Source: Spirochaetaceae bacterium
GTDB taxonomy: Bacteria > Spirochaetota > Spirochaetia > Treponematales > Breznakiellaceae
Reading direction: 5' to 3'
NCBI GenBank assembly: GCA_031262035.1
Contig: JAISIL010000054.1
Span: forward strand, 23,425-87,424
Length of the DNA: 64,000 nt
Part shown: piece by piece, positions 5,800 through 58,555 of the stretch
Layout: each line of letters opens with the position of its first letter
Numbering within the stretch: position 1 is the stretch's first letter
Program-made: the position numbers and the translations under genes
The notes under the pieces: generated by a model
Seen by the model: only the letters and a program-made list of their open reading frames with translations
What the model was told of the DNA's origin: nothing
Database searches by the model: none

Positions 5800-5873
5800 T
5801 CGGGCAACCCGGATTTGAACCGGGGACCCCAAGTCCCCCAGACTTGTACGCTAACCAACTGCGCTATTGCCCG
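5800..5873 (-). tRNA. tRNA-Pro (anticodon GGG)
   Basis: Folds by hand into a cloverleaf: acceptor CGGGCAA/TTGCCCG, D-arm GCGC..GCGT, anticodon stem CAAGT/ACTTG with loop CTGGGGG, T-arm CCCGG-TTCAAAT-CCGGG, discriminator A. Confidence 0.9.
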
Positions 5874-44505: not shown

Positions 44506-45984
44506 ATGACGGCTGAATATATACGGAAACTTCTTAAAGACGGTGAAGGTTTTACTGTTGAATTTAAGAAGTGTAAAGACGAAATACAAGGCAGTGTTTA
44601 TGAAACAGTGTGTGCTTTCTCAAATAAATATGGTGGTCATATCCTTTTGGGAGTAGACGATAATGGGAAAATAGCAGGGGTAAACCCAAAAGCTGTCTTA
44701 AACATGAAGCGCAGTTTTGTAACTACTTTAAATAATCCGCAAAAGATTTCGCCACCCATGTATTTACAGTTGGAAGATATAGAAATTGATGGGAAAATAA
44801 TACTTTATATCTATGTGCCGGTTGGTTCGCTTGTTCAAACCTGTAAAGGACGGCTTTACGACAGAACTATCGAAGCCGATATTGACATAACAACGAACCA
44901 GAACCTTGCCAGGGATTTATACAACAGAAAAGCAAATGTATTTACTGAAAGAAAGGTCTTCCCCTATCTGGACGAAAGTGAATTGCTTATCAAAGAACTT
45001 ATGCCCCGTGTCAGAATCAGGGCACAAATGCGCAATACCGAGCATCCTTGGCTGAATATGAACGATATGGACATAATGCGAAGTGCAAATCTTTTGGAAA
45101 CTGATCGCAAAACAAAAAAAGAACATTTTAACATGGCTGCGGTTTTGCTGTTTGGAAAAGAGCAGACGATTTTCTCCTGCTGCCCCGGTTATATTACCGA
45201 TTGTATTTTACGGAAGGTAAACCTTGACCGCTATGATGATCGCCTCATGGTTCGTATAAATTTAATAGATGCTTTTGACCAGATTATAAGTTTTATTCAA
45301 AAACACACTCCTGACCCATTCTATATGGAAGGAACTGAGGCAATAAGCATCCGCGATAAGATAGCGAGGGAACTGGTGAGTAACAGTCTATCGCATCGGG
45401 AATATGAAACGACAAGATCAGCACGAATCATCATAGAAAAGGATAGAATATATGCCGACAACTGGAACCGTTCTAACTTTTTTGGTGAACTTAACCCAAA
45501 TGCCTTTACTCCCGAACCGAAAAACCCAATTATCTCAAAATTTTTTGTAAACATTATGTATGCCGAAAGCCTTGGTTCTGGTATGCGCAATCTCTATAAA
45601 TATGTTCCGCTCTATGCCAATGGGAAAAATCCCGAACTTATAGAGGGTGATATGTTTACAACAATTATTCCGCTTCCGGGTTTGGAAAACGCAAGCGATA
45701 AAGTTGCCGATAAAGTTGCCGATAAAGTTGCCGATAAAGTTGCCGATAAAAGTATTACCCGAACCTTGACCTCTGCTGAAAAAGCATTTATGAAGACATT
45801 AAGTGATTATTTTATTGAAAACGAATGGCTAAACAATTCCATTGCCTGTGAACTTTCAGGAATAGCGGTAGGCAGTGTCAAACGCTACCTGCACAATCTG
45901 ACTGTAAAAGGAGCGCTCGAAGCAGAAGGCGAAAACAAAGCAAGACGATATCGGCTTGCCATCGGGTTAAGCCCTCCCCCCTAA
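44506..45984 (+). CDS. Schlafen/AlbA_2-domain + HATPase_c_4-like putative regulator ('RecG-like' annotation class)
   Basis: EGFTVEFKKCKDEI...VCAFSNKYGGHILLGVDDNGKIAGV, then ARELVSNSLSHREY and a C-terminal wHTH-like tail. The ATG at 44506 is preferred. Confidence 0.65.
   Translation: MTAEYIRKLLKDGEGFTVEFKKCKDEIQGSVYETVCAFSNKYGGHILLGVDDNGKIAGVNPKAVLNMKRSFVTTLNNPQKISPPMYLQLEDIEIDGKIILYIYVPVGSLVQTCKGRLYDRTIEADIDITTNQNLARDLYNRKANVFTERKVFPYLDESELLIKELMPRVRIRAQMRNTEHPWLNMNDMDIMRSANLLETDRKTKKEHFNMAAVLLFGKEQTIFSCCPGYITDCILRKVNLDRYDDRLMVRINLIDAFDQIISFIQKHTPDPFYMEGTEAISIRDKIARELVSNSLSHREYETTRSARIIIEKDRIYADNWNRSNFFGELNPNAFTPEPKNPIISKFFVNIMYAESLGSGMRNLYKYVPLYANGKNPELIEGDMFTTIIPLPGLENASDKVADKVADKVADKVADKSITRTLTSAEKAFMKTLSDYFIENEWLNNSIACELSGIAVGSVKRYLHNLTVKGALEAEGENKARRYRLAIGLSPPP
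45697..45750 (+). repeat. In-frame 12-bp tandem repeat (GATAAAGTTGCC x4.5), encoding (DKVA)4DK
   Basis: Read directly from the sequence, inside the 44506 CDS. Confidence 0.95.
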
Positions 45985-47171
45985 TTCTCCAACAAGATAA
46001 TCTCCACCCGCCGGTTTTTTTTGCGGCCTTCTTCGCCGGCATTGTCGGCAAGGGGCCTGGTGTCGCCATAGCCTTTTGCGATAATATGCTCGGGGCTGCG
46101 CACTCCGCTTTGTATCAGGTAGTTTGCCACACTTGCAGCACGGGCTTCGGACAGCCGCATACTGCTTGCGGCATCTCCTATTTTTGCGGTGTGGCCTGCA
46201 ACCAAAATATCTCTATCGGGATACTTTTTTAGAATGGCAATAATCGCATTAAGCTTTGCCGCCTCGCTTGCTATCAGTTCCGGGGAATCGGGCGGGAAAT
46301 TGATATTATCAAGGCTGATTGCAATGCCTTCATCGGTAACACGGACATCCCCTTCAGGAATTTCCTCTGATAAATCTTTTGCCAACTGCTCCTTGTTCAT
46401 ATTCTCTGCATTGTGGATTTCCGCCTTCGCGCTGCCCTTGTATTCAATCACTGCACCATCGTTCATTTCAAAAATCATTCGAAAATCTTCTGTGTAAGAA
46501 GCCGGCCTCCCATTGACTGCATCCCACAAAAGAGACATCTTGCTTTCACCAATTATCTTGAGGGGCTTTGTTTCGTAAATCCGGTAAGAAATTTCAAATT
46601 GATTGTTGCCCTTGTAGGTATAATTTGCAGTAAAGGGAATAGGGTAGGGCTCTTTTATATTGAAGTTCTTCCGAAAATCATGCACCTCAAGTCCTTCGGC
46701 CTCCCAGCTATCGCCGGGTTCTAAGTCCTTTGCCGGAAACACCGGCAGATTACGCACCATCGGCATAAAGGCGCTTTTTTCCACCGTCATCATTCCCCGT
46801 GCATCCTGCCGGTAACTGGTGCTGTATTCCTCGGCCCAAGTAAACACCTTCCCCTTACCGGCACTCTCAGATGTTTGATAAATTCCTTCTATTATATTAT
46901 CAGCTTTAACACTCGCCGCTATCCGATTGAGGATATTCGAGGTATGACTGTATTGCCTGTTGATATAGACCTCTTCGTCTACGGTGGACAATATCCGATA
47001 TTGCGAACCGGCGGGAAATTTCCAGGTGAAGGTCTCGGCGTCAATAGATAAAACAACTACAAACAACAAACAGAATACGGTGGTAAGGGCGGAAAATTTT
47101 CCGCCCTTACCGTAGGGGTAGGTTTTAAACCTACCCCTACCACCCTGTCTTTTGTGGTTAATCTTCTGCAT
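45981..47171 (-). CDS. OmpA-family protein (C-terminal OmpA/MotB peptidoglycan-binding domain)
   Basis: ...LVAGHTAKIGDAASSMRLSEARAASVANYL...GEEGRKKNRRVEIILL. Its ATG overlaps the stop of the upstream PRTase gene by 1 nt. Confidence 0.8.
   Translation of the reverse strand: MQKINHKRQGGRGRFKTYPYGKGGKFSALTTVFCLLFVVVLSIDAETFTWKFPAGSQYRILSTVDEEVYINRQYSHTSNILNRIAASVKADNIIEGIYQTSESAGKGKVFTWAEEYSTSYRQDARGMMTVEKSAFMPMVRNLPVFPAKDLEPGDSWEAEGLEVHDFRKNFNIKEPYPIPFTANYTYKGNNQFEISYRIYETKPLKIIGESKMSLLWDAVNGRPASYTEDFRMIFEMNDGAVIEYKGSAKAEIHNAENMNKEQLAKDLSEEIPEGDVRVTDEGIAISLDNINFPPDSPELIASEAAKLNAIIAILKKYPDRDILVAGHTAKIGDAASSMRLSEARAASVANYLIQSGVRSPEHIIAKGYGDTRPLADNAGEEGRKKNRRVEIILLEN
47083..47140. repeat. Double-hairpin element (GTAGGGG...CCCCTAC plus GGGCGG...CCGCCC type) inside the 5' coding end of the OmpA-family gene
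   Basis: GTAAGGGCGGAAAATTTTCCGCCCTTAC (47083-47110) and GTAGGGGTAGGTTTTAAACCTACCCCTAC (47112-47140). Same two-hairpin order on the coding strand as 54625-54673. Confidence 0.8.
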
Positions 47172-47776
47172 TATAAAATATCCAGCACCGTTCGCAGCTC
47201 CGGGTCGTGTTTGTAGTAGTTTTCTTCCAGTTCCTCTTTACCAAGGCCTACAAGCTCGTGGCTCATGTAGTGAATCCAGTAGGGTTCATCATTTAGCGAA
47301 AGTTCGTGTTTACGGCACCAATAGTCAGGCTGAATGGGAAGCTGCTTTGGTGCGTCATAGAAATACTTGTAATCATGCACGGCAACCTTCAGGTCATCAC
47401 GGGGGATGCCCCGGTCGACAATAATCTGTGCCAGATGATTAATCGTCCTTCCGGAATCGAAAATATCATCTATTAAAAGCACCTTGTCGCCTACGCGAAG
47501 ATGCGCCGGGTCGTAAGTCCAGCCTTCAACACGGATAAGCTCCTCGGACTGCCGCACACCGGTGTAAGAACGGGCTACCACCGCAGCATAGTAGACAGGC
47601 CGATGCTCAGGCTTCTGGAGAATCTTAAAATACTCACTAATCACATTCCCCATGTAAGCCCCTCCGCGGAGGGACACATAGATAACATCAGGGACAAAGC
47701 CCTCATCATAAATCCGCTTTGCCAGCTTCAAAGCATTGTTACGAACAACATCGTAAGGTAAAAATTCCTTCTTCAT
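47171..47776 (-). CDS. Phosphoribosyltransferase-family protein (purine PRTase-like)
   Basis: PRPP-binding motif VLLIDDIFDSGRT, 201 aa. Confidence 0.7.
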   Translation of the reverse strand: MKKEFLPYDVVRNNALKLAKRIYDEGFVPDVIYVSLRGGAYMGNVISEYFKILQKPEHRPVYYAAVVARSYTGVRQSEELIRVEGWTYDPAHLRVGDKVLLIDDIFDSGRTINHLAQIIVDRGIPRDDLKVAVHDYKYFYDAPKQLPIQPDYWCRKHELSLNDEPYWIHYMSHELVGLGKEELEENYYKHDPELRTVLDIL

Positions 47777-53809: not shown

Positions 53810-54628
53810 ATGAAACAGAAAATCATTATTTTGCCGCTTCTATTGGCGGCTCTTTTCACCGGCTGTATCAATCGGGGGAAAGACATTGTTGTTGTGTCCC
53901 GGGAAGACGGTTCGGGAACCCGTGGCGCCTTCATCGAACTTTTTGGTATCGAACAAAAGGGGACTGACGGCAGTAAAAAAGACACTACCACCAAAGAGGC
54001 CCTTATAGCAAAACAAACCGATGTCATGATGACTACCGTTGCAGGCGATAAAAATGCAATTGGTTACATTTCGCTTGGTTCACTTAACGACACGGTAAAG
54101 GCGCTATCGATTGACGGCGGGGCATTCAAGGCGGAAAGGCCTTTTTACATTGCCATTAAGGACAGTGCAGAGAGTGGCAGCCCTCTGCAAAAAGAATTTA
54201 TCGAATTCATTCTATCCGAACAGGGGCAGGAAGTTGTTGCAAAAAGCTACATTGCAGTGAAGCCGCAAGCTGAAAGCTTTAAGAGTAAAAAGCCTGATGG
54301 TAAGATTGTTGTTGCAGGCTCCTCGTCAGTAACACCGGTAATGGAAAAACTGAAAGAGGCATACACAAGCCTTAATCCCTATGGCGCTATCGAAATACAG
54401 CAAAGCGATTCATCTGCCGGGCTGAGTGCCTGCATAGACGGCATCTGCGATATAGCCATGGCAAGCCGCGAACTAAAAGATGCAGAAAAAACAACCCTCA
54501 CCCCAATACAAATTGCCACAGACGGCATTGCAGTAATTGTAAACAAAAGCAACACGGTAGATAATGCAACACGGGAAGAGGTGAAGAAGATATTCACCGG
54601 GGAATTGAGCACATGGAATGCAATGTAG
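53810..54628 (+). CDS. pstS: Phosphate ABC transporter substrate-binding lipoprotein
   Basis: Lipobox LFTGC. SREDGSGTRGAF, GSSSVTPVMEKL and IAVIVNKSN...IFTGELSTWN. Confidence 0.8.
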   Translation: MKQKIIILPLLLAALFTGCINRGKDIVVVSREDGSGTRGAFIELFGIEQKGTDGSKKDTTTKEALIAKQTDVMMTTVAGDKNAIGYISLGSLNDTVKALSIDGGAFKAERPFYIAIKDSAESGSPLQKEFIEFILSEQGQEVVAKSYIAVKPQAESFKSKKPDGKIVVAGSSSVTPVMEKLKEAYTSLNPYGAIEIQQSDSSAGLSACIDGICDIAMASRELKDAEKTTLTPIQIATDGIAVIVNKSNTVDNATREEVKKIFTGELSTWNAM

Positions 54629-55500
54629 GGGCAGGGCGAGCCCTGCCCCTACGGGCGGGCAAAGCCCGCCCGTCCGAGACGGTTTGCCATATTATTTTTT
54701 TATTATGCGCCATCGTCTCAATCCTTTGCGTTATCCTCATCTGCATTTTTCTTTTTGCCAATGCACTGCCTGCATTCCGGAAAATTGGACTTGTGCAATT
54801 CCTTTTAGGCAGGGATTGGTCGCCTTCGGATACGCCGCCTGCCTTTGGCATCTTACCTATGATACTGGGGAGTGTGTATGTTACGATTGGTGCTCTGGTA
54901 GTAGGTGTGCCTATAGGTATTTTGTGTGCAGTCTTTTTGGTTAAGACCTGTCCGAAAAAACTTTACCGAATAGTAAAACCGGGAATTGACTTGCTTGCCG
55001 GTATCCCCTCCGTGGTCTACGGCTTTTTTGGTATGGCAGCCATCGTGCCGCTTTTTGGAAACAGTATTCTCTCTGCCTCTATTCTGTTGGGCATAATGAT
55101 TCTTCCTACGGTAATTGGCCTTTCGGAAAGTGCAGTTCGTGCAGTAAATGAACAGTATTATGAAGGGGCTTTGGCACTGGGGGCGGGGCATTACCGTGCA
55201 GTTTTTTGCGTAGTGCTCCCTGCGGCAAAATCCGGTGTGCTGGCGGCAATTGTATTAGGCCTGGGGCGTGCCATCGGGGAAACAATGGCCGTGATTATGG
55301 TTGCCGGAAACCAGGCACGGATGCCGCTGTCTCTGTTAAAGGGGGTGCGAACAATGACGGCCAATATTGTAATAGAAATGGGCTATGCAACTGGGCTTCA
55401 CCGTGAGGCGCTTATTGCAACCGGGGTGGTATTGTTTGTGTTTATATTGATTATCAATGTTAGTTTTTCTGTGCTAAAACGGGGGAATAATCATGATTAA
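54613..55500 (+). CDS. pstC: Phosphate ABC transporter permease PstC
   Basis: Six-TM permease with RAIGETMAV. The only in-frame start is the ATG at 54613, which overlaps pstS by 16 nt. Codons 5-21 are therefore the double-hairpin repeat. Confidence 0.75.
   Translation: MECNVGAGRALPLRAGKARPSETVCHIIFLLCAIVSILCVILICIFLFANALPAFRKIGLVQFLLGRDWSPSDTPPAFGILPMILGSVYVTIGALVVGVPIGILCAVFLVKTCPKKLYRIVKPGIDLLAGIPSVVYGFFGMAAIVPLFGNSILSASILLGIMILPTVIGLSESAVRAVNEQYYEGALALGAGHYRAVFCVVLPAAKSGVLAAIVLGLGRAIGETMAVIMVAGNQARMPLSLLKGVRTMTANIVIEMGYATGLHREALIATGVVLFVFILIINVSFSVLKRGNNHD
54625..54673. repeat. Double-hairpin element at the pstS/pstC junction
   Basis: GTAGGGGCAGGG-CGAG-CCCTGCCCCTAC then GGGCGGGC-AAA-GCCCGCCC. 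Confidence 0.85.
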
Positions 55501-56410: not shown

Positions 56411-58555
56411 ATGGCAAAAACCCGTCTTCGCCTTCGTATTTTTCTTCTCTTTTTGGTGATTGAACTTGCCGTCGCCCTGCTTGTTTCTGCTGCTTTCAGT
56501 GCCCGTTACTATTGGGATCTCCGGAAAATAGCGGATGTTCGATTACAGGAAACACTCAGTGTGGTTACAAGGCTCTATCCGATAATAGAAAAACCCGAAC
56601 AGTTTCTTGTAGAAGCGCAACAAAATAGCAATAAATATCAGGAAATCCGTGCACATCTTCTGGAAATAAGGCAGGCCTCTGATGTTACAGATATTTATAT
56701 CATTCTGGAACAGAATGGACAATACTGGTTTTTTGTCGATACCGGTGTATCAAATCTGAATAGAAATTCAAATGGTATTGCCATTTATGAAAAACCTGTC
56801 GATGCTTTTATGCAGTGTATTCAAAGTGGTGAACCTGTTTTTTCTAATCCTTACCGAAGTGAGCTTGGTGCATTTGTTTCCTATTTTATTCCGCTAAAAA
56901 ATACTTTGGGAAACACTATTGGCACCCTTGCTGCCGAGTATGATCTCGATGTTATTCAAGGTTTTGGCAATGAGGTGCTTCTTGCAAATTTTATCGCTTT
57001 GTTTGCCGCACTTGTGCTTTCAGTGCTGCTGTCCTGGTTTGCTTCCCGAAAAATGGCTGCCGATGAAGAGGCAAAACGCAATTTTCTTGCACGAATGAGC
57101 CATGAAATACGCAGTCCGATGAATGCTATTATCGGTGGTATTGAATTGATACGCACCGATAATCTTGATGATGTCCAGCGCGGCTATTTTGAGGATATTA
57201 GCACAATGTCACATGCATTGCTTGGTATAGTAAATGATGTTCTTGATTTTTCCAAGATTGATGCAGGAAAACTCAGCCTGAATCCGCTGCACTTTAATCT
57301 CTGGGCTCTTTTTGACAATGTAACAAGTATGAACCGTTATCTCAGCACTATGAAGGGGCTCGATTTTAAGGCAGAGCGTTCTGAAAATGTGCCACAGTTT
57401 ATGTATGCCGATGAAATTCGTATCAGACAGATTTTTACAAACCTGATTAGTAATGCTGTCAAGTATACCAAGACGGGGTTTGTGGAGATTGGTTTAAAAA
57501 TTAACCAGGCACCAGTAAGGGCGAATAATTATTCGCCCTTACTGGAATTTACCGTCCGGGATAGCGGCATTGGTATTAAGTCTGAGGATATTCCCCATGT
57601 TTTTGAAGCATTTACCCAGCTTGATGTGCAAAAGAACCGTGGTATTACCGGCACGGGGCTTGGGCTTCCTATTGTGAAACAACTGGTCGATATGATGGGC
57701 GGCAAGATAGAAATTGAAAGCATCTACGGTAAGGGTTCTTTATTCCGTGTGTTCCTGCCCTTTGTCGCAGGTGATGCAGCAGAGGTTCTGCCTGACACAG
57801 ATACTGTGCCGGCACTTGTCTTTAAGCCTGATAACAATCTGAAAATACTCGTGGTCGATGACCTTCCGGTAAACCTGACTATTGCGCTTGGTTTTTTGGC
57901 AAGGCACGGCCTTAGTGCCGATACTGCAAACAATGGCTATGAAGCTCTGGAAAAAGTAAAGAATCTGGTATTCCAGGGTGAACAATACGATTTGATTTTT
58001 ATGGACCACATGATGCCCGGCATGGATGGTATTGAAACATCGAAAAAAATACGGGAACTTGGGGTAGTAACTCCGATAATTGCATTGACTGCAAATGCTA
58101 TTGCAGGCGCACGGGAACTTTTTCTTTCAAATGGCATGAATGATTTTATTTCAAAGCCTATTTCTGACAGTGAATTGAACAGAATCCTGGTCGACTTTCT
58201 GCTTAAAAAAACAGGTAATAGCATAGAAGAAAACAGTGCAGATGAAACTGTAATAGAAAATAATGTATCATTTGAAGAGAGAATACAGCAATCGGTGAAG
58301 CGGGAATTGCCAAAAGAAAAAGAATTATTAAAAAAACTTTTTCAGGAGGAAGACTGGGAAAATTTTGGCATCAAGGCACATTCCTTAAAAGGCCTTTTTG
58401 CCCAGATTGCCGAAAACGATTTAAGTGAACAGGCAAAAGAACTTGAATTTGCTGCAAAAGAAGGCAATGTTGCCCTTTGTAAAGAAAAAACTGCTCCATT
58501 TATTACTGCAATGGAGACATATATAAAACAAATAGGAGAGAAAGAAAATGAGTGA
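56411..58555 (+). CDS. Hybrid sensor histidine kinase (periplasmic sensor + HisKA + HATPase + receiver + HPt)
   Basis: SHEIRSPMNAI H-box, GTGLGLPIV G-box, receiver ILVVDD...FMDHMMPGMDG...KP, and a C-terminal HSLKG HPt motif. Confidence 0.85.
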   Translation: MAKTRLRLRIFLLFLVIELAVALLVSAAFSARYYWDLRKIADVRLQETLSVVTRLYPIIEKPEQFLVEAQQNSNKYQEIRAHLLEIRQASDVTDIYIILEQNGQYWFFVDTGVSNLNRNSNGIAIYEKPVDAFMQCIQSGEPVFSNPYRSELGAFVSYFIPLKNTLGNTIGTLAAEYDLDVIQGFGNEVLLANFIALFAALVLSVLLSWFASRKMAADEEAKRNFLARMSHEIRSPMNAIIGGIELIRTDNLDDVQRGYFEDISTMSHALLGIVNDVLDFSKIDAGKLSLNPLHFNLWALFDNVTSMNRYLSTMKGLDFKAERSENVPQFMYADEIRIRQIFTNLISNAVKYTKTGFVEIGLKINQAPVRANNYSPLLEFTVRDSGIGIKSEDIPHVFEAFTQLDVQKNRGITGTGLGLPIVKQLVDMMGGKIEIESIYGKGSLFRVFLPFVAGDAAEVLPDTDTVPALVFKPDNNLKILVVDDLPVNLTIALGFLARHGLSADTANNGYEALEKVKNLVFQGEQYDLIFMDHMMPGMDGIETSKKIRELGVVTPIIALTANAIAGARELFLSNGMNDFISKPISDSELNRILVDFLLKKTGNSIEENSADETVIENNVSFEERIQQSVKRELPKEKELLKKLFQEEDWENFGIKAHSLKGLFAQIAENDLSEQAKELEFAAKEGNVALCKEKTAPFITAMETYIKQIGEKENE

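Follow-up and report, generated by a model that had tools for sequence, protein, structure and literature searches.

We analyzed a 64,000-nt stretch of contig JAISIL010000054.1 (hereafter, the window) from a Treponema-like bacterium, the assembly of which comprises 3.07 Mb in 215 contigs and is 99% complete. Repetitive extragenic palindromes (REPs) lie just downstream of the ATG codons of two genes in the window, namely pstC, which encodes the permease of the pst system, and a gene encoding a secreted OmpA-family protein. Reading frames and comparison with relatives indicate that both elements are probably translated from these upstream ATG codons, with higher confidence for the OmpA-family gene than for pstC. 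A preliminary description of this DNA had proposed that the positively charged N-terminal region of each protein took up a REP-like element. The gene starts of relatives, an insert of 16 codons in pstC, and a genome-wide excess of in-frame elements support this proposal.

A REP ends pstS within the reading frame of pstC

The pstS lipoprotein gene (53810–54628, plus strand; PBP_like_2, circularly permuted) and pstC (54613–55500, plus strand; BPD_transp_1) overlap by 16 nt, and the start ATG of pstC lies over a Trp codon of pstS. Domain names of window genes were taken from Pfam. Two consecutive GC-rich hairpins are present at this junction from position 54625, with the sequence and coordinates that the preliminary description had given. 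The first is a double-foot GTAG REP unit, GTAGGGGCAGGGCGAGCCCTGCCCCTAC (54625–54652), a 28-nt perfect palindrome characterized by its sequence, a genome census, and RNA folding. It occupies pstC codons 5–13 and the first base of codon 14, and is read VGAGRALPL. Its GTAG foot supplies the TAG stop codon of pstS (54626–54628, plus strand); a single 28-nt repeat both ends pstS and extends pstC. The consensus variant of this pstC-type unit, GTAGGGGCAGGGCGCGCCCTGCCCCTAC, has nine copies in the genome and is present in many phyla.

The second hairpin, GGGCGGGCAAAGCCCGCCC (GGGCGGGC AAA GCCCGCCC; 54653–54671, or to 54672 with a trailing G), directly abuts the REP. No second copy of this private hairpin exists in the genome; one-foot GGGCGGGC...GCCCCTAC units come closest to it. 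Having no foot, it is not a member of the double-foot GTAG REP type. Together, the REP, the private hairpin, and the G (54625–54672) measure 48 nt, which corresponds to 16 codons in the pstC frame. The folding energy of the hairpin pair as RNA was −45.4 kcal/mol (z = −7.1), and the hairpins begin at +13, that is, 12 nt past the ATG.

The N-terminus of PstC reads MECN[VGAGRALPLRAGKARP]SETVCHIIF, with the insert in brackets. ATG 54613 is the sole ATG, GTG, or TTG start available in the pstC frame, as the preliminary description had stated, and the next such codon follows 46 codons after the hairpin. The translations given there, VGAGRALPLRAGKARPS and GGRGRFKTYPYGKGGKFSALT, are correct. The genome contains only one copy of pstC, and the cluster pstS-pstC-pstA-(hybrid kinase)-pstB-phoB-phoR, the sole pst system in the genome, is intact.

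Relatives support a pstC start upstream of the hairpins

The pstS/pstC junction was compared in six close relatives (loci L033, L034, L035, L036, L125, and L127). In relatives at 73–85% identity, PstC has 269–288 residues and is approximately 20 residues shorter than PstC here. Their N-tails have 10 residues and fit M-x-x-x-[KS]-E-[KQ]-x-M-[HS]-x-V-F; examples are MKKMSEQLMH, MEKIKEKLMH (L036), MNKAKEKIMS, and MSRVREKLMG, as well as MSTLREKTMS (L125) and MNKWKEKGMS (L127), which were read from DNA. In L036, the PstC of which is 82% identical, the ATG lies over the conserved pstS Trp codon (CA-ATG-GAA, with pstS ending ...EQWKK-stop). The same ATG register was observed in the window (AC-ATG-GAA, with pstS ending ...STWNAM-stop; CAATGGAAA in L036, ACATGGAAT here). 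Deletion of 54625–54672 in silico yielded MECNSETVCH, the 10-residue tail of the family. Because of the L036 register and the restored tail, ATG 54613 appears to be the ancestral start and the 48 nt an in-frame insert after codon 4.

Reconstruction of the empty site succeeded on one side only. Removal of the 48 nt mended the tail of pstC, but left pstS without a nearby stop codon, where the pstS genes of relatives stop 2–12 codons past the Trp. Since the pstS frame then runs on without a stop, the insertion would have replaced or displaced the old stop. In L034 (L034 1-170, Joint Genome Institute (JGI) sample 3300042599; PstC 81% identical), a different REP pair is located at the same end of pstS and also donates a TAG. 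L035 carries a CCCCCGCAAGGGGGG hairpin at the junction, and no hairpin was found there in L033, L036, L125, or L127. The pstS/pstC junction looks like a recurrent slot for hairpins.

PstS is circularly permuted here and in all relatives inspected (L002–L005 and L033 among them). The lipobox is followed by the usual second half (VVVSREDGSGTR...) and then by the usual first half (GSSSVTPVMEKL...IFTGE..W). PBP_like_2 positions 7–124 match PstS residues 161–270.

A REP doublet precedes the signal-peptide core of the OmpA-family protein

The OmpA-family gene (45981–47171, minus strand; PF00691 at residues 292–387) starts with ATG 47169–47171, which overlaps the TAA stop of the upstream phosphoribosyltransferase gene (47171–47776, minus strand). 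This TAATG overlap agrees with the preliminary description. A REP doublet begins 33 nt past the TAATG, and its hairpins start at +32 of the OmpA-family gene. The first unit, GTAGGGGTAGGTTTAAAACCTACCCCTAC (47112–47140, minus strand), is a 29-nt double-foot unit with a GTAG foot. The second, GTAAGGGCGGAAAATTTTCCGCCCTTAC (47083–47110, minus strand), follows after one base and is a full 28-nt double-foot unit with GTAA feet. The whole doublet is enclosed by a 4-bp private outer stem (GGTG...CACC; 47079–47144, with the minus-strand sequence G GRGRFKTYPYGKGGKFSALT T). As RNA, this hairpin pair gave −43.7 kcal/mol (z = −9.0).

The preliminary description had regarded this site as an element with the two hairpins in the same order as at pstC. 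The two hairpins are indeed present, but a single conserved bipartite element was rejected: the first hairpins belong to different subfamilies, and the partner hairpins differ, that of pstC being unique. The two sites are combinations of independent units, not copies of one element.

The OmpA-family precursor starts MQKINHKRQ[GGRGRFKTYPYGKGGKFSAL]TTVFCLLFVVVLSIDA/ETF. All orthologs, which are approximately 50% identical, have ordinary short signal peptides; P0124, from a Treponema metagenome-assembled genome (MAG), starts MQKTLKTVFCLLAL (MQKTLKTVFCLL), and P0164 starts MQKTRGW in the alignment. MQK and TVFCLL are common to P0124 and the protein here (MQKINHKRQ[insert]TTVFCLL), and on account of this match the start codon and the hydrophobic core appear to be ancestral. 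The doublet is thus predicted to add 20–24 residues to the n-region of the signal peptide. Past the insert, a start is available only at a TTG within the hydrophobic core, and its use would leave no n-region. The comparison with orthologs that the preliminary description had proposed therefore favors the upstream starts for both genes, through the L036 register and the 10-residue tails in pstC and the MQK/TVFCLL match in the OmpA-family gene.

REPs are frequent in genes and enriched at N-termini throughout the genome

The genome was surveyed for units of the form GTA[AG]GG...CC[CT]TAC, which were grouped into elements (single or doublet); genes were called from open frames and not with a trained gene finder. 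The survey revealed 99 units on many contigs, forming 81 elements, of which 18 were doublets. A search for hairpin pairs had been suggested in the preliminary description; the units proved to be independent of one another, and the second hairpin of pstC had no further copy. Units are nearly all 28 or 29 nt long, perfectly palindromic, and divided into several subfamilies. The strict unit pattern had 64 matches in the genome, compared to 0 for a reversed control. Within the window, GTAGGGG-N-CCCCTAC had two matches (0.00 expected) and GGGCGG-N-CCGCCC also had two (0.05 expected). All three full units at the window sites are perfect palindromes with GC-rich stems, and their 3' ends read CTAC or TTAC; some units of the genome, those at 47083–47110 and 57515 among them, carry GTAA feet. 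With a 5' foot, a 3' reverse-complement foot, and many dispersed copies, the window units are double-foot GTAG REPs.

Open frames of at least 120 codons span 63 of the 81 elements (78%), compared to 91% of random 28-nt positions, and frames of at least 300 codons span 53 of the 81, compared to 69%. REPs are therefore hardly excluded from genes. Forty-two elements lie far within long frames, such as those of IlvB-like, TilS-like, and UppS-like genes. The classical REP trait of being extragenic does not hold in this genome, with 18 of the 81 elements clearly extragenic. The reading frame in which GTA forms a codon prevails (48 vs 15). As read from the unit sequences, the G-TAG frame is closed, and subfamilies with an AATAATT loop have TAA in the other frame. 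Peptides encoded by REPs contain no Glu.

Elements near gene starts were overrepresented. Among the 61 long-frame elements (internal, N-terminal, or C-terminal), 17 are located within 45 codons of the first start, where approximately 10–13% were expected (P = 0.0016). When two elements without an upstream start are added to these 17, a co-directional open reading frame (ORF) of at least 100 codons ends 0–101 nt upstream of the element or inside it in 16 of the 19 cases. A strongly hydrophobic segment, belonging to a signal peptide or a first membrane helix, was observed within the next 30 residues for 12 of the 17 N-terminal elements (background 32%; P = 0.0013), and several of these genes carry lipoboxes (LFVSC, GFVSC, LFSC, and LSISC). 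N-terminal copies encode more basic peptides than internal copies do, with 1.78 and 1.10 net charges per 10 residues, respectively (P = 0.003). Of the 27 elements at one-directional junctions, 17 are open in the frame of the downstream gene with a start upstream, compared to 9 expected with a random frame (P ~1e-4, a conservative value). In 15 cases, an element supplies the stop of an ORF with at least 100 codons.

A length rule, by which the REP, the loop, and one arm of the private hairpin would add up to a multiple of three, was rejected; by hand count it held in 5 of 14 cases, about the level of chance. Single REP elements at C111:4751-4779, C78:28619-28675, and C126:16574-16601 are flanked by convergent genes and seem to provide the stops of both. 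In C111 and C78 each foot provides one TAG, while C126 has a TAG for one strand and, for the opposite strand, a TAA within the unit.

Proposed origin and translation of the N-terminal inserts

The anatomy of the sites, their family membership, the preserved frames, the conserved start positions, and the genome-wide pattern are consistent with the following course. REPs would land behind the stop codons of upstream genes, in this case pstS and the phosphoribosyltransferase gene. At tight junctions, where the next start overlaps or touches that stop, the repeat would fall within the first codons of the downstream gene, and only in-frame, stop-free insertions would survive. The surviving inserts would be 48 nt after codon 4 of pstC and approximately 60–72 nt after codon 9–10 of the OmpA-family gene. 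The GTAG foot now provides the stop of pstS, while translation would still start from the ancestral ATG codons and read through the hairpins. PstC would thereby gain 16 residues on its cytoplasmic N-tail, and the OmpA-family protein 20–24 residues in the n-region of its cleavable signal peptide.

Gly, Pro, Ala, and Arg/Lys abound among the added residues, the net charge of which is positive. Such inserts may survive best where a flexible basic extension is harmless, as in a cytoplasmic N-tail before the first helix or in the n-region of a signal peptide that is cleaved off. PstC is known to have an N-in topology, and the positive-inside rule is established. Because of this rule and the removal of the signal peptide, extra basic and flexible residues should be tolerated at these positions. 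Signal-peptide n-regions and the cytoplasmic N-tails of membrane proteins thus seem to tolerate the landing of repeats that encode basic, Gly/Pro-rich peptides.

The pstC hairpins at +13 lie in the region in which structure normally limits initiation, and a ribosome terminating at the TAG in the first hairpin would have melted that hairpin. We infer a dependence of pstC translation on ribosomes arriving from pstS, through termination-reinitiation coupling. Such coupling would also hold the amount of permease below that of the binding protein. The hairpins of the OmpA-family gene at +32 should matter little for initiation.

Alternative explanations

The repeats may instead be kept mainly for their work in mRNA, where, like the REPs between malE and malF, they would protect the upstream cistron against 3' exonucleases and perhaps stall terminating ribosomes. 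The downstream membrane or secreted protein would then be lowered or coupled, which would set the ratio of binding protein to permease. Protection of the upstream 3' end and stalling at the stop codon are plausible and compatible with translation; that these roles are the main reason for the presence of the repeats is possible, but we lean against it. Both window elements and 16 of the 19 start-proximal elements are located just 3' of an upstream stop, and the hairpins are extremely stable. Hairpins also recur at the pstS/pstC junction, as a REP with a private hairpin here, as a different REP pair in L034, and as CCCCCGCAAGGGGGG in L035. Roles of REPs in mRNA stability, termination, and translation have been summarized (Quentin, Siguier, Chandler, Fichant 2018, PMC6006769). 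However, the four relatives L033, L036, L125, and L127 lack a hairpin at this junction, and 42 copies lie deep inside genes, where such a role does not apply. The hairpins are followed by GTCCGAGACGG and ACCACCGTA and have no U-tract, so they are not intrinsic (Rho-independent) terminators; no terminator-like site was found at 54625–54700.

A second alternative is that the hairpins are non-coding. Translation would then start downstream at weak or non-canonical codons (ATT 54691/54694 in pstC; TTG 47064/47061 in the OmpA-family gene), REPs would act only in mRNA, and the upstream frame would be fortuitous. We consider this unlikely, although several observations weigh in its favor and against translation from the upstream ATG codons. 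The REP pair of L034 is intergenic at the same junction, with the pstC start 40 nt downstream. The closest PstC relatives (85% and 82% identity; L033 and L035) were called with almost no N-tail (MRLVFLL and MHIIFL), and a short PstC starting near CHIIFLL would therefore be viable here. Two very stable hairpins of −45 kcal/mol that begin 12 nt after ATG 54613 should hinder independent initiation at this codon. The closest relative of the OmpA-family gene is only approximately 50% identical. In addition, a survey of REPs in other species warned that many N-terminal REPs are probably non-coding (Di Nocera, De Gregorio, Rocco 2013, PMC3733652).

On the other hand, the pstC frame contains no ATG, GTG, or TTG for 46 codons, and no Shine-Dalgarno-like motif precedes the ATT codons. 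The upstream ATG has its positional homolog in the pstC start of L036, and the insert amounts to exactly 16 codons. In the OmpA-family protein, a TTG start would leave a 9-residue core with no n-region, and MQK is shared with orthologs. The in-frame excess at junctions throughout the genome also speaks against chance. These results suggest that the upstream ATG codons are the probable starts of both genes.

A third alternative, that the insertions made pstC and the OmpA-family gene young pseudogenes or rendered export or membrane insertion faulty, might be suspected from the strong structure near the pstC start and the unusually long signal-peptide n-region (approximately 30 residues with 8 Lys/Arg), but is very improbable: the frames are intact (295 and 396 codons) and conserved to orthologs over their whole length, the inserts are exact multiples of three, the remaining cluster of the only pst system is intact, and the same pattern occurs in more than 10 other secreted or lipoprotein genes.

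Spread of the repeats and private hairpins

The exact pstC-type 28-mer was also found in Bacteroidota, Chloroflexota, Omnitrophota, Nitrospira, Gemmatimonadales, Armatimonadetes, and a Peribacteria genome. The 28-mer GTAGGGGCAGGGCNNGCCCTGCCCCTAC is frequent in Prevotellaceae/Bacteroidales MAGs, which by their record names are apparently from termite gut (loci L043–L122), and occurs in 'Candidatus Symbiothrix dinenymphae' and many unrelated phyla. REPs of this type are absent from 28 of 30 relatives, though half of those relatives carry Y1 transposases. Presence of a Y1 transposase was accordingly rejected as a correlate, as it did not track with REPs in relatives. A six-frame search of the 99%-complete assembly for a REP-associated tyrosine transposase (RAYT; Y1, PF01797) gave no match, while control genomes were positive; unbinned contigs could hold such a gene. 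With Rfam 15 at the gathering score, the only match in the window was the tRNA at 5800–5873. With approximately 100 REPs, mostly intragenic, and no detectable RAYT, this genome may be a useful case for understanding how REPs spread and persist.

Private hairpins were defined as perfect hairpins with a stem of at least 6 bp and a loop of mostly 3 nt, located at most 30 nt from an element. Such hairpins adjoin 37 of the 81 elements (46%), usually abutting them, compared to 4.7% of random sites. Private outer stems, of at least 3 bp enclosing the unit, surround 24 of the 99 units, where approximately 1.6 were expected. Further REPs joined to a private hairpin or nested in a private outer stem were observed at C88:5192, C35:13645, and C187:10315, in addition to the hairpin at 54653–54671 in the window. 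Relative to homologs, the private hairpin is presumably extra material in pstC and in a TilS-like and an IlvB-like gene. In a UppS-like gene, one private hairpin encodes EICRAMRQI, which we take to align with conserved UppS residues.

Some REP families are inserted within small palindromes (PMC3733652). It is conceivable, though we hold it doubtful, that fold-back or template-switch synthesis at the REP creates the private hairpins on the spot, or that these hairpins mark hairpin feet as the insertion target, either of which would point to hairpin-templated and RAYT-independent spread. If true, this could explain REP doublets as well as slots that hold different REPs in relatives, as at pstS/pstC here and in L034.

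Comparison with known repeat systems

Double-foot REPs are linked to TnpAREP/RAYT subclass 2.4, occur in Cyanobacteria, Bacteroidetes, and other phyla, and are sometimes inserted in frame within genes (PMC6006769). The REPs described here resemble them in having many copies per genome, in occurring in various phyla, and in lying within genes without breaking the frame. They differ in that no Y1/RAYT gene was found in the assembly, some feet are GTAA, and most copies are intragenic.

The termini of GTAG/CGTC REPs have been reported to give TAG stops to flanking ORFs, and REPs that lie wholly within ORFs, as singles or dimers, encode 10–30 residues, with an excess at ORF N-termini (PMC3733652). 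In the same survey, the usual position of REPs was behind a stop codon, REPtrons could be lost, GTAG REPs were mostly between genes, and none were listed for Spirochaetes. Stop donation, intragenic singles and doublets, the N-terminal excess, and nesting in small palindromes are all shared with the elements here. In contrast to the survey, 78% of the elements in this genome lie in long open frames, and those at N-termini go together with operon junctions and signal peptides. Many N-terminal cases in the survey were judged non-coding, whereas the upstream starts here have comparative support. In-gene, stop-donating, and N-terminal REPs are thus an already known phenomenon, of which the two window sites are a well-supported example.

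For Rickettsia palindromic elements (RPE; Ogata et al. 2000, cited in PMC3733652), in vivo expression of proteins decorated at the N-terminus with RPE-1 has been reported. The elements here are similar in behavior only, as selfish palindromes kept in frame and read as extra peptide. RPE-1 measures approximately 100–150 bp and is not known to be related in sequence to the REPs here. The short rickettsial REPs are of CGTC type, unlike the 28–29-nt GTAG palindromes of this genome.

REPs between malE and malF in E. coli were reportedly described by Newbury and co-workers in 1987. In both cases, hairpin repeats lie behind the gene of a periplasmic binding protein and ahead of ABC permease genes. 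The malE-malF REPs are intergenic, whereas here the genes overlap and the repeat lies inside the permease frame. A literature search for REPs in signal peptides returned nothing relevant, and a search by repeat sequence gave only unrelated primer matches. For annotation, these findings suggest that REP hairpins at tight operon junctions can be genuine parts of N-termini. Starts should not be moved downstream automatically, nor should such genes be discarded as broken.

Other repeats in the window and the genome

A third window unit, GTAAGGGCGAATAATTATTCGCCCTTAC (57515–57542), which the preliminary description did not report, lies in frame in a hybrid histidine kinase gene and is read VRANNYSPL. 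The peptide sits in a variable loop of the HATPase_c domain that is approximately 4 residues longer than in PDB 7z8n. The kinase gene (56411–58555; HisKA, HATPase_c, receiver, and Hpt domains) is located between pstA and pstB in the pst-pho cluster. Further hairpin families were observed in the genome (GGGCGTAGCGACGCTACGCCC, GGAGTTTGCGCAGCAAACTCC, and CCCCCCCCGCAAGCGGGGGGGG), together with C15/G14 homopolymer palindromes, which may be assembly artefacts.

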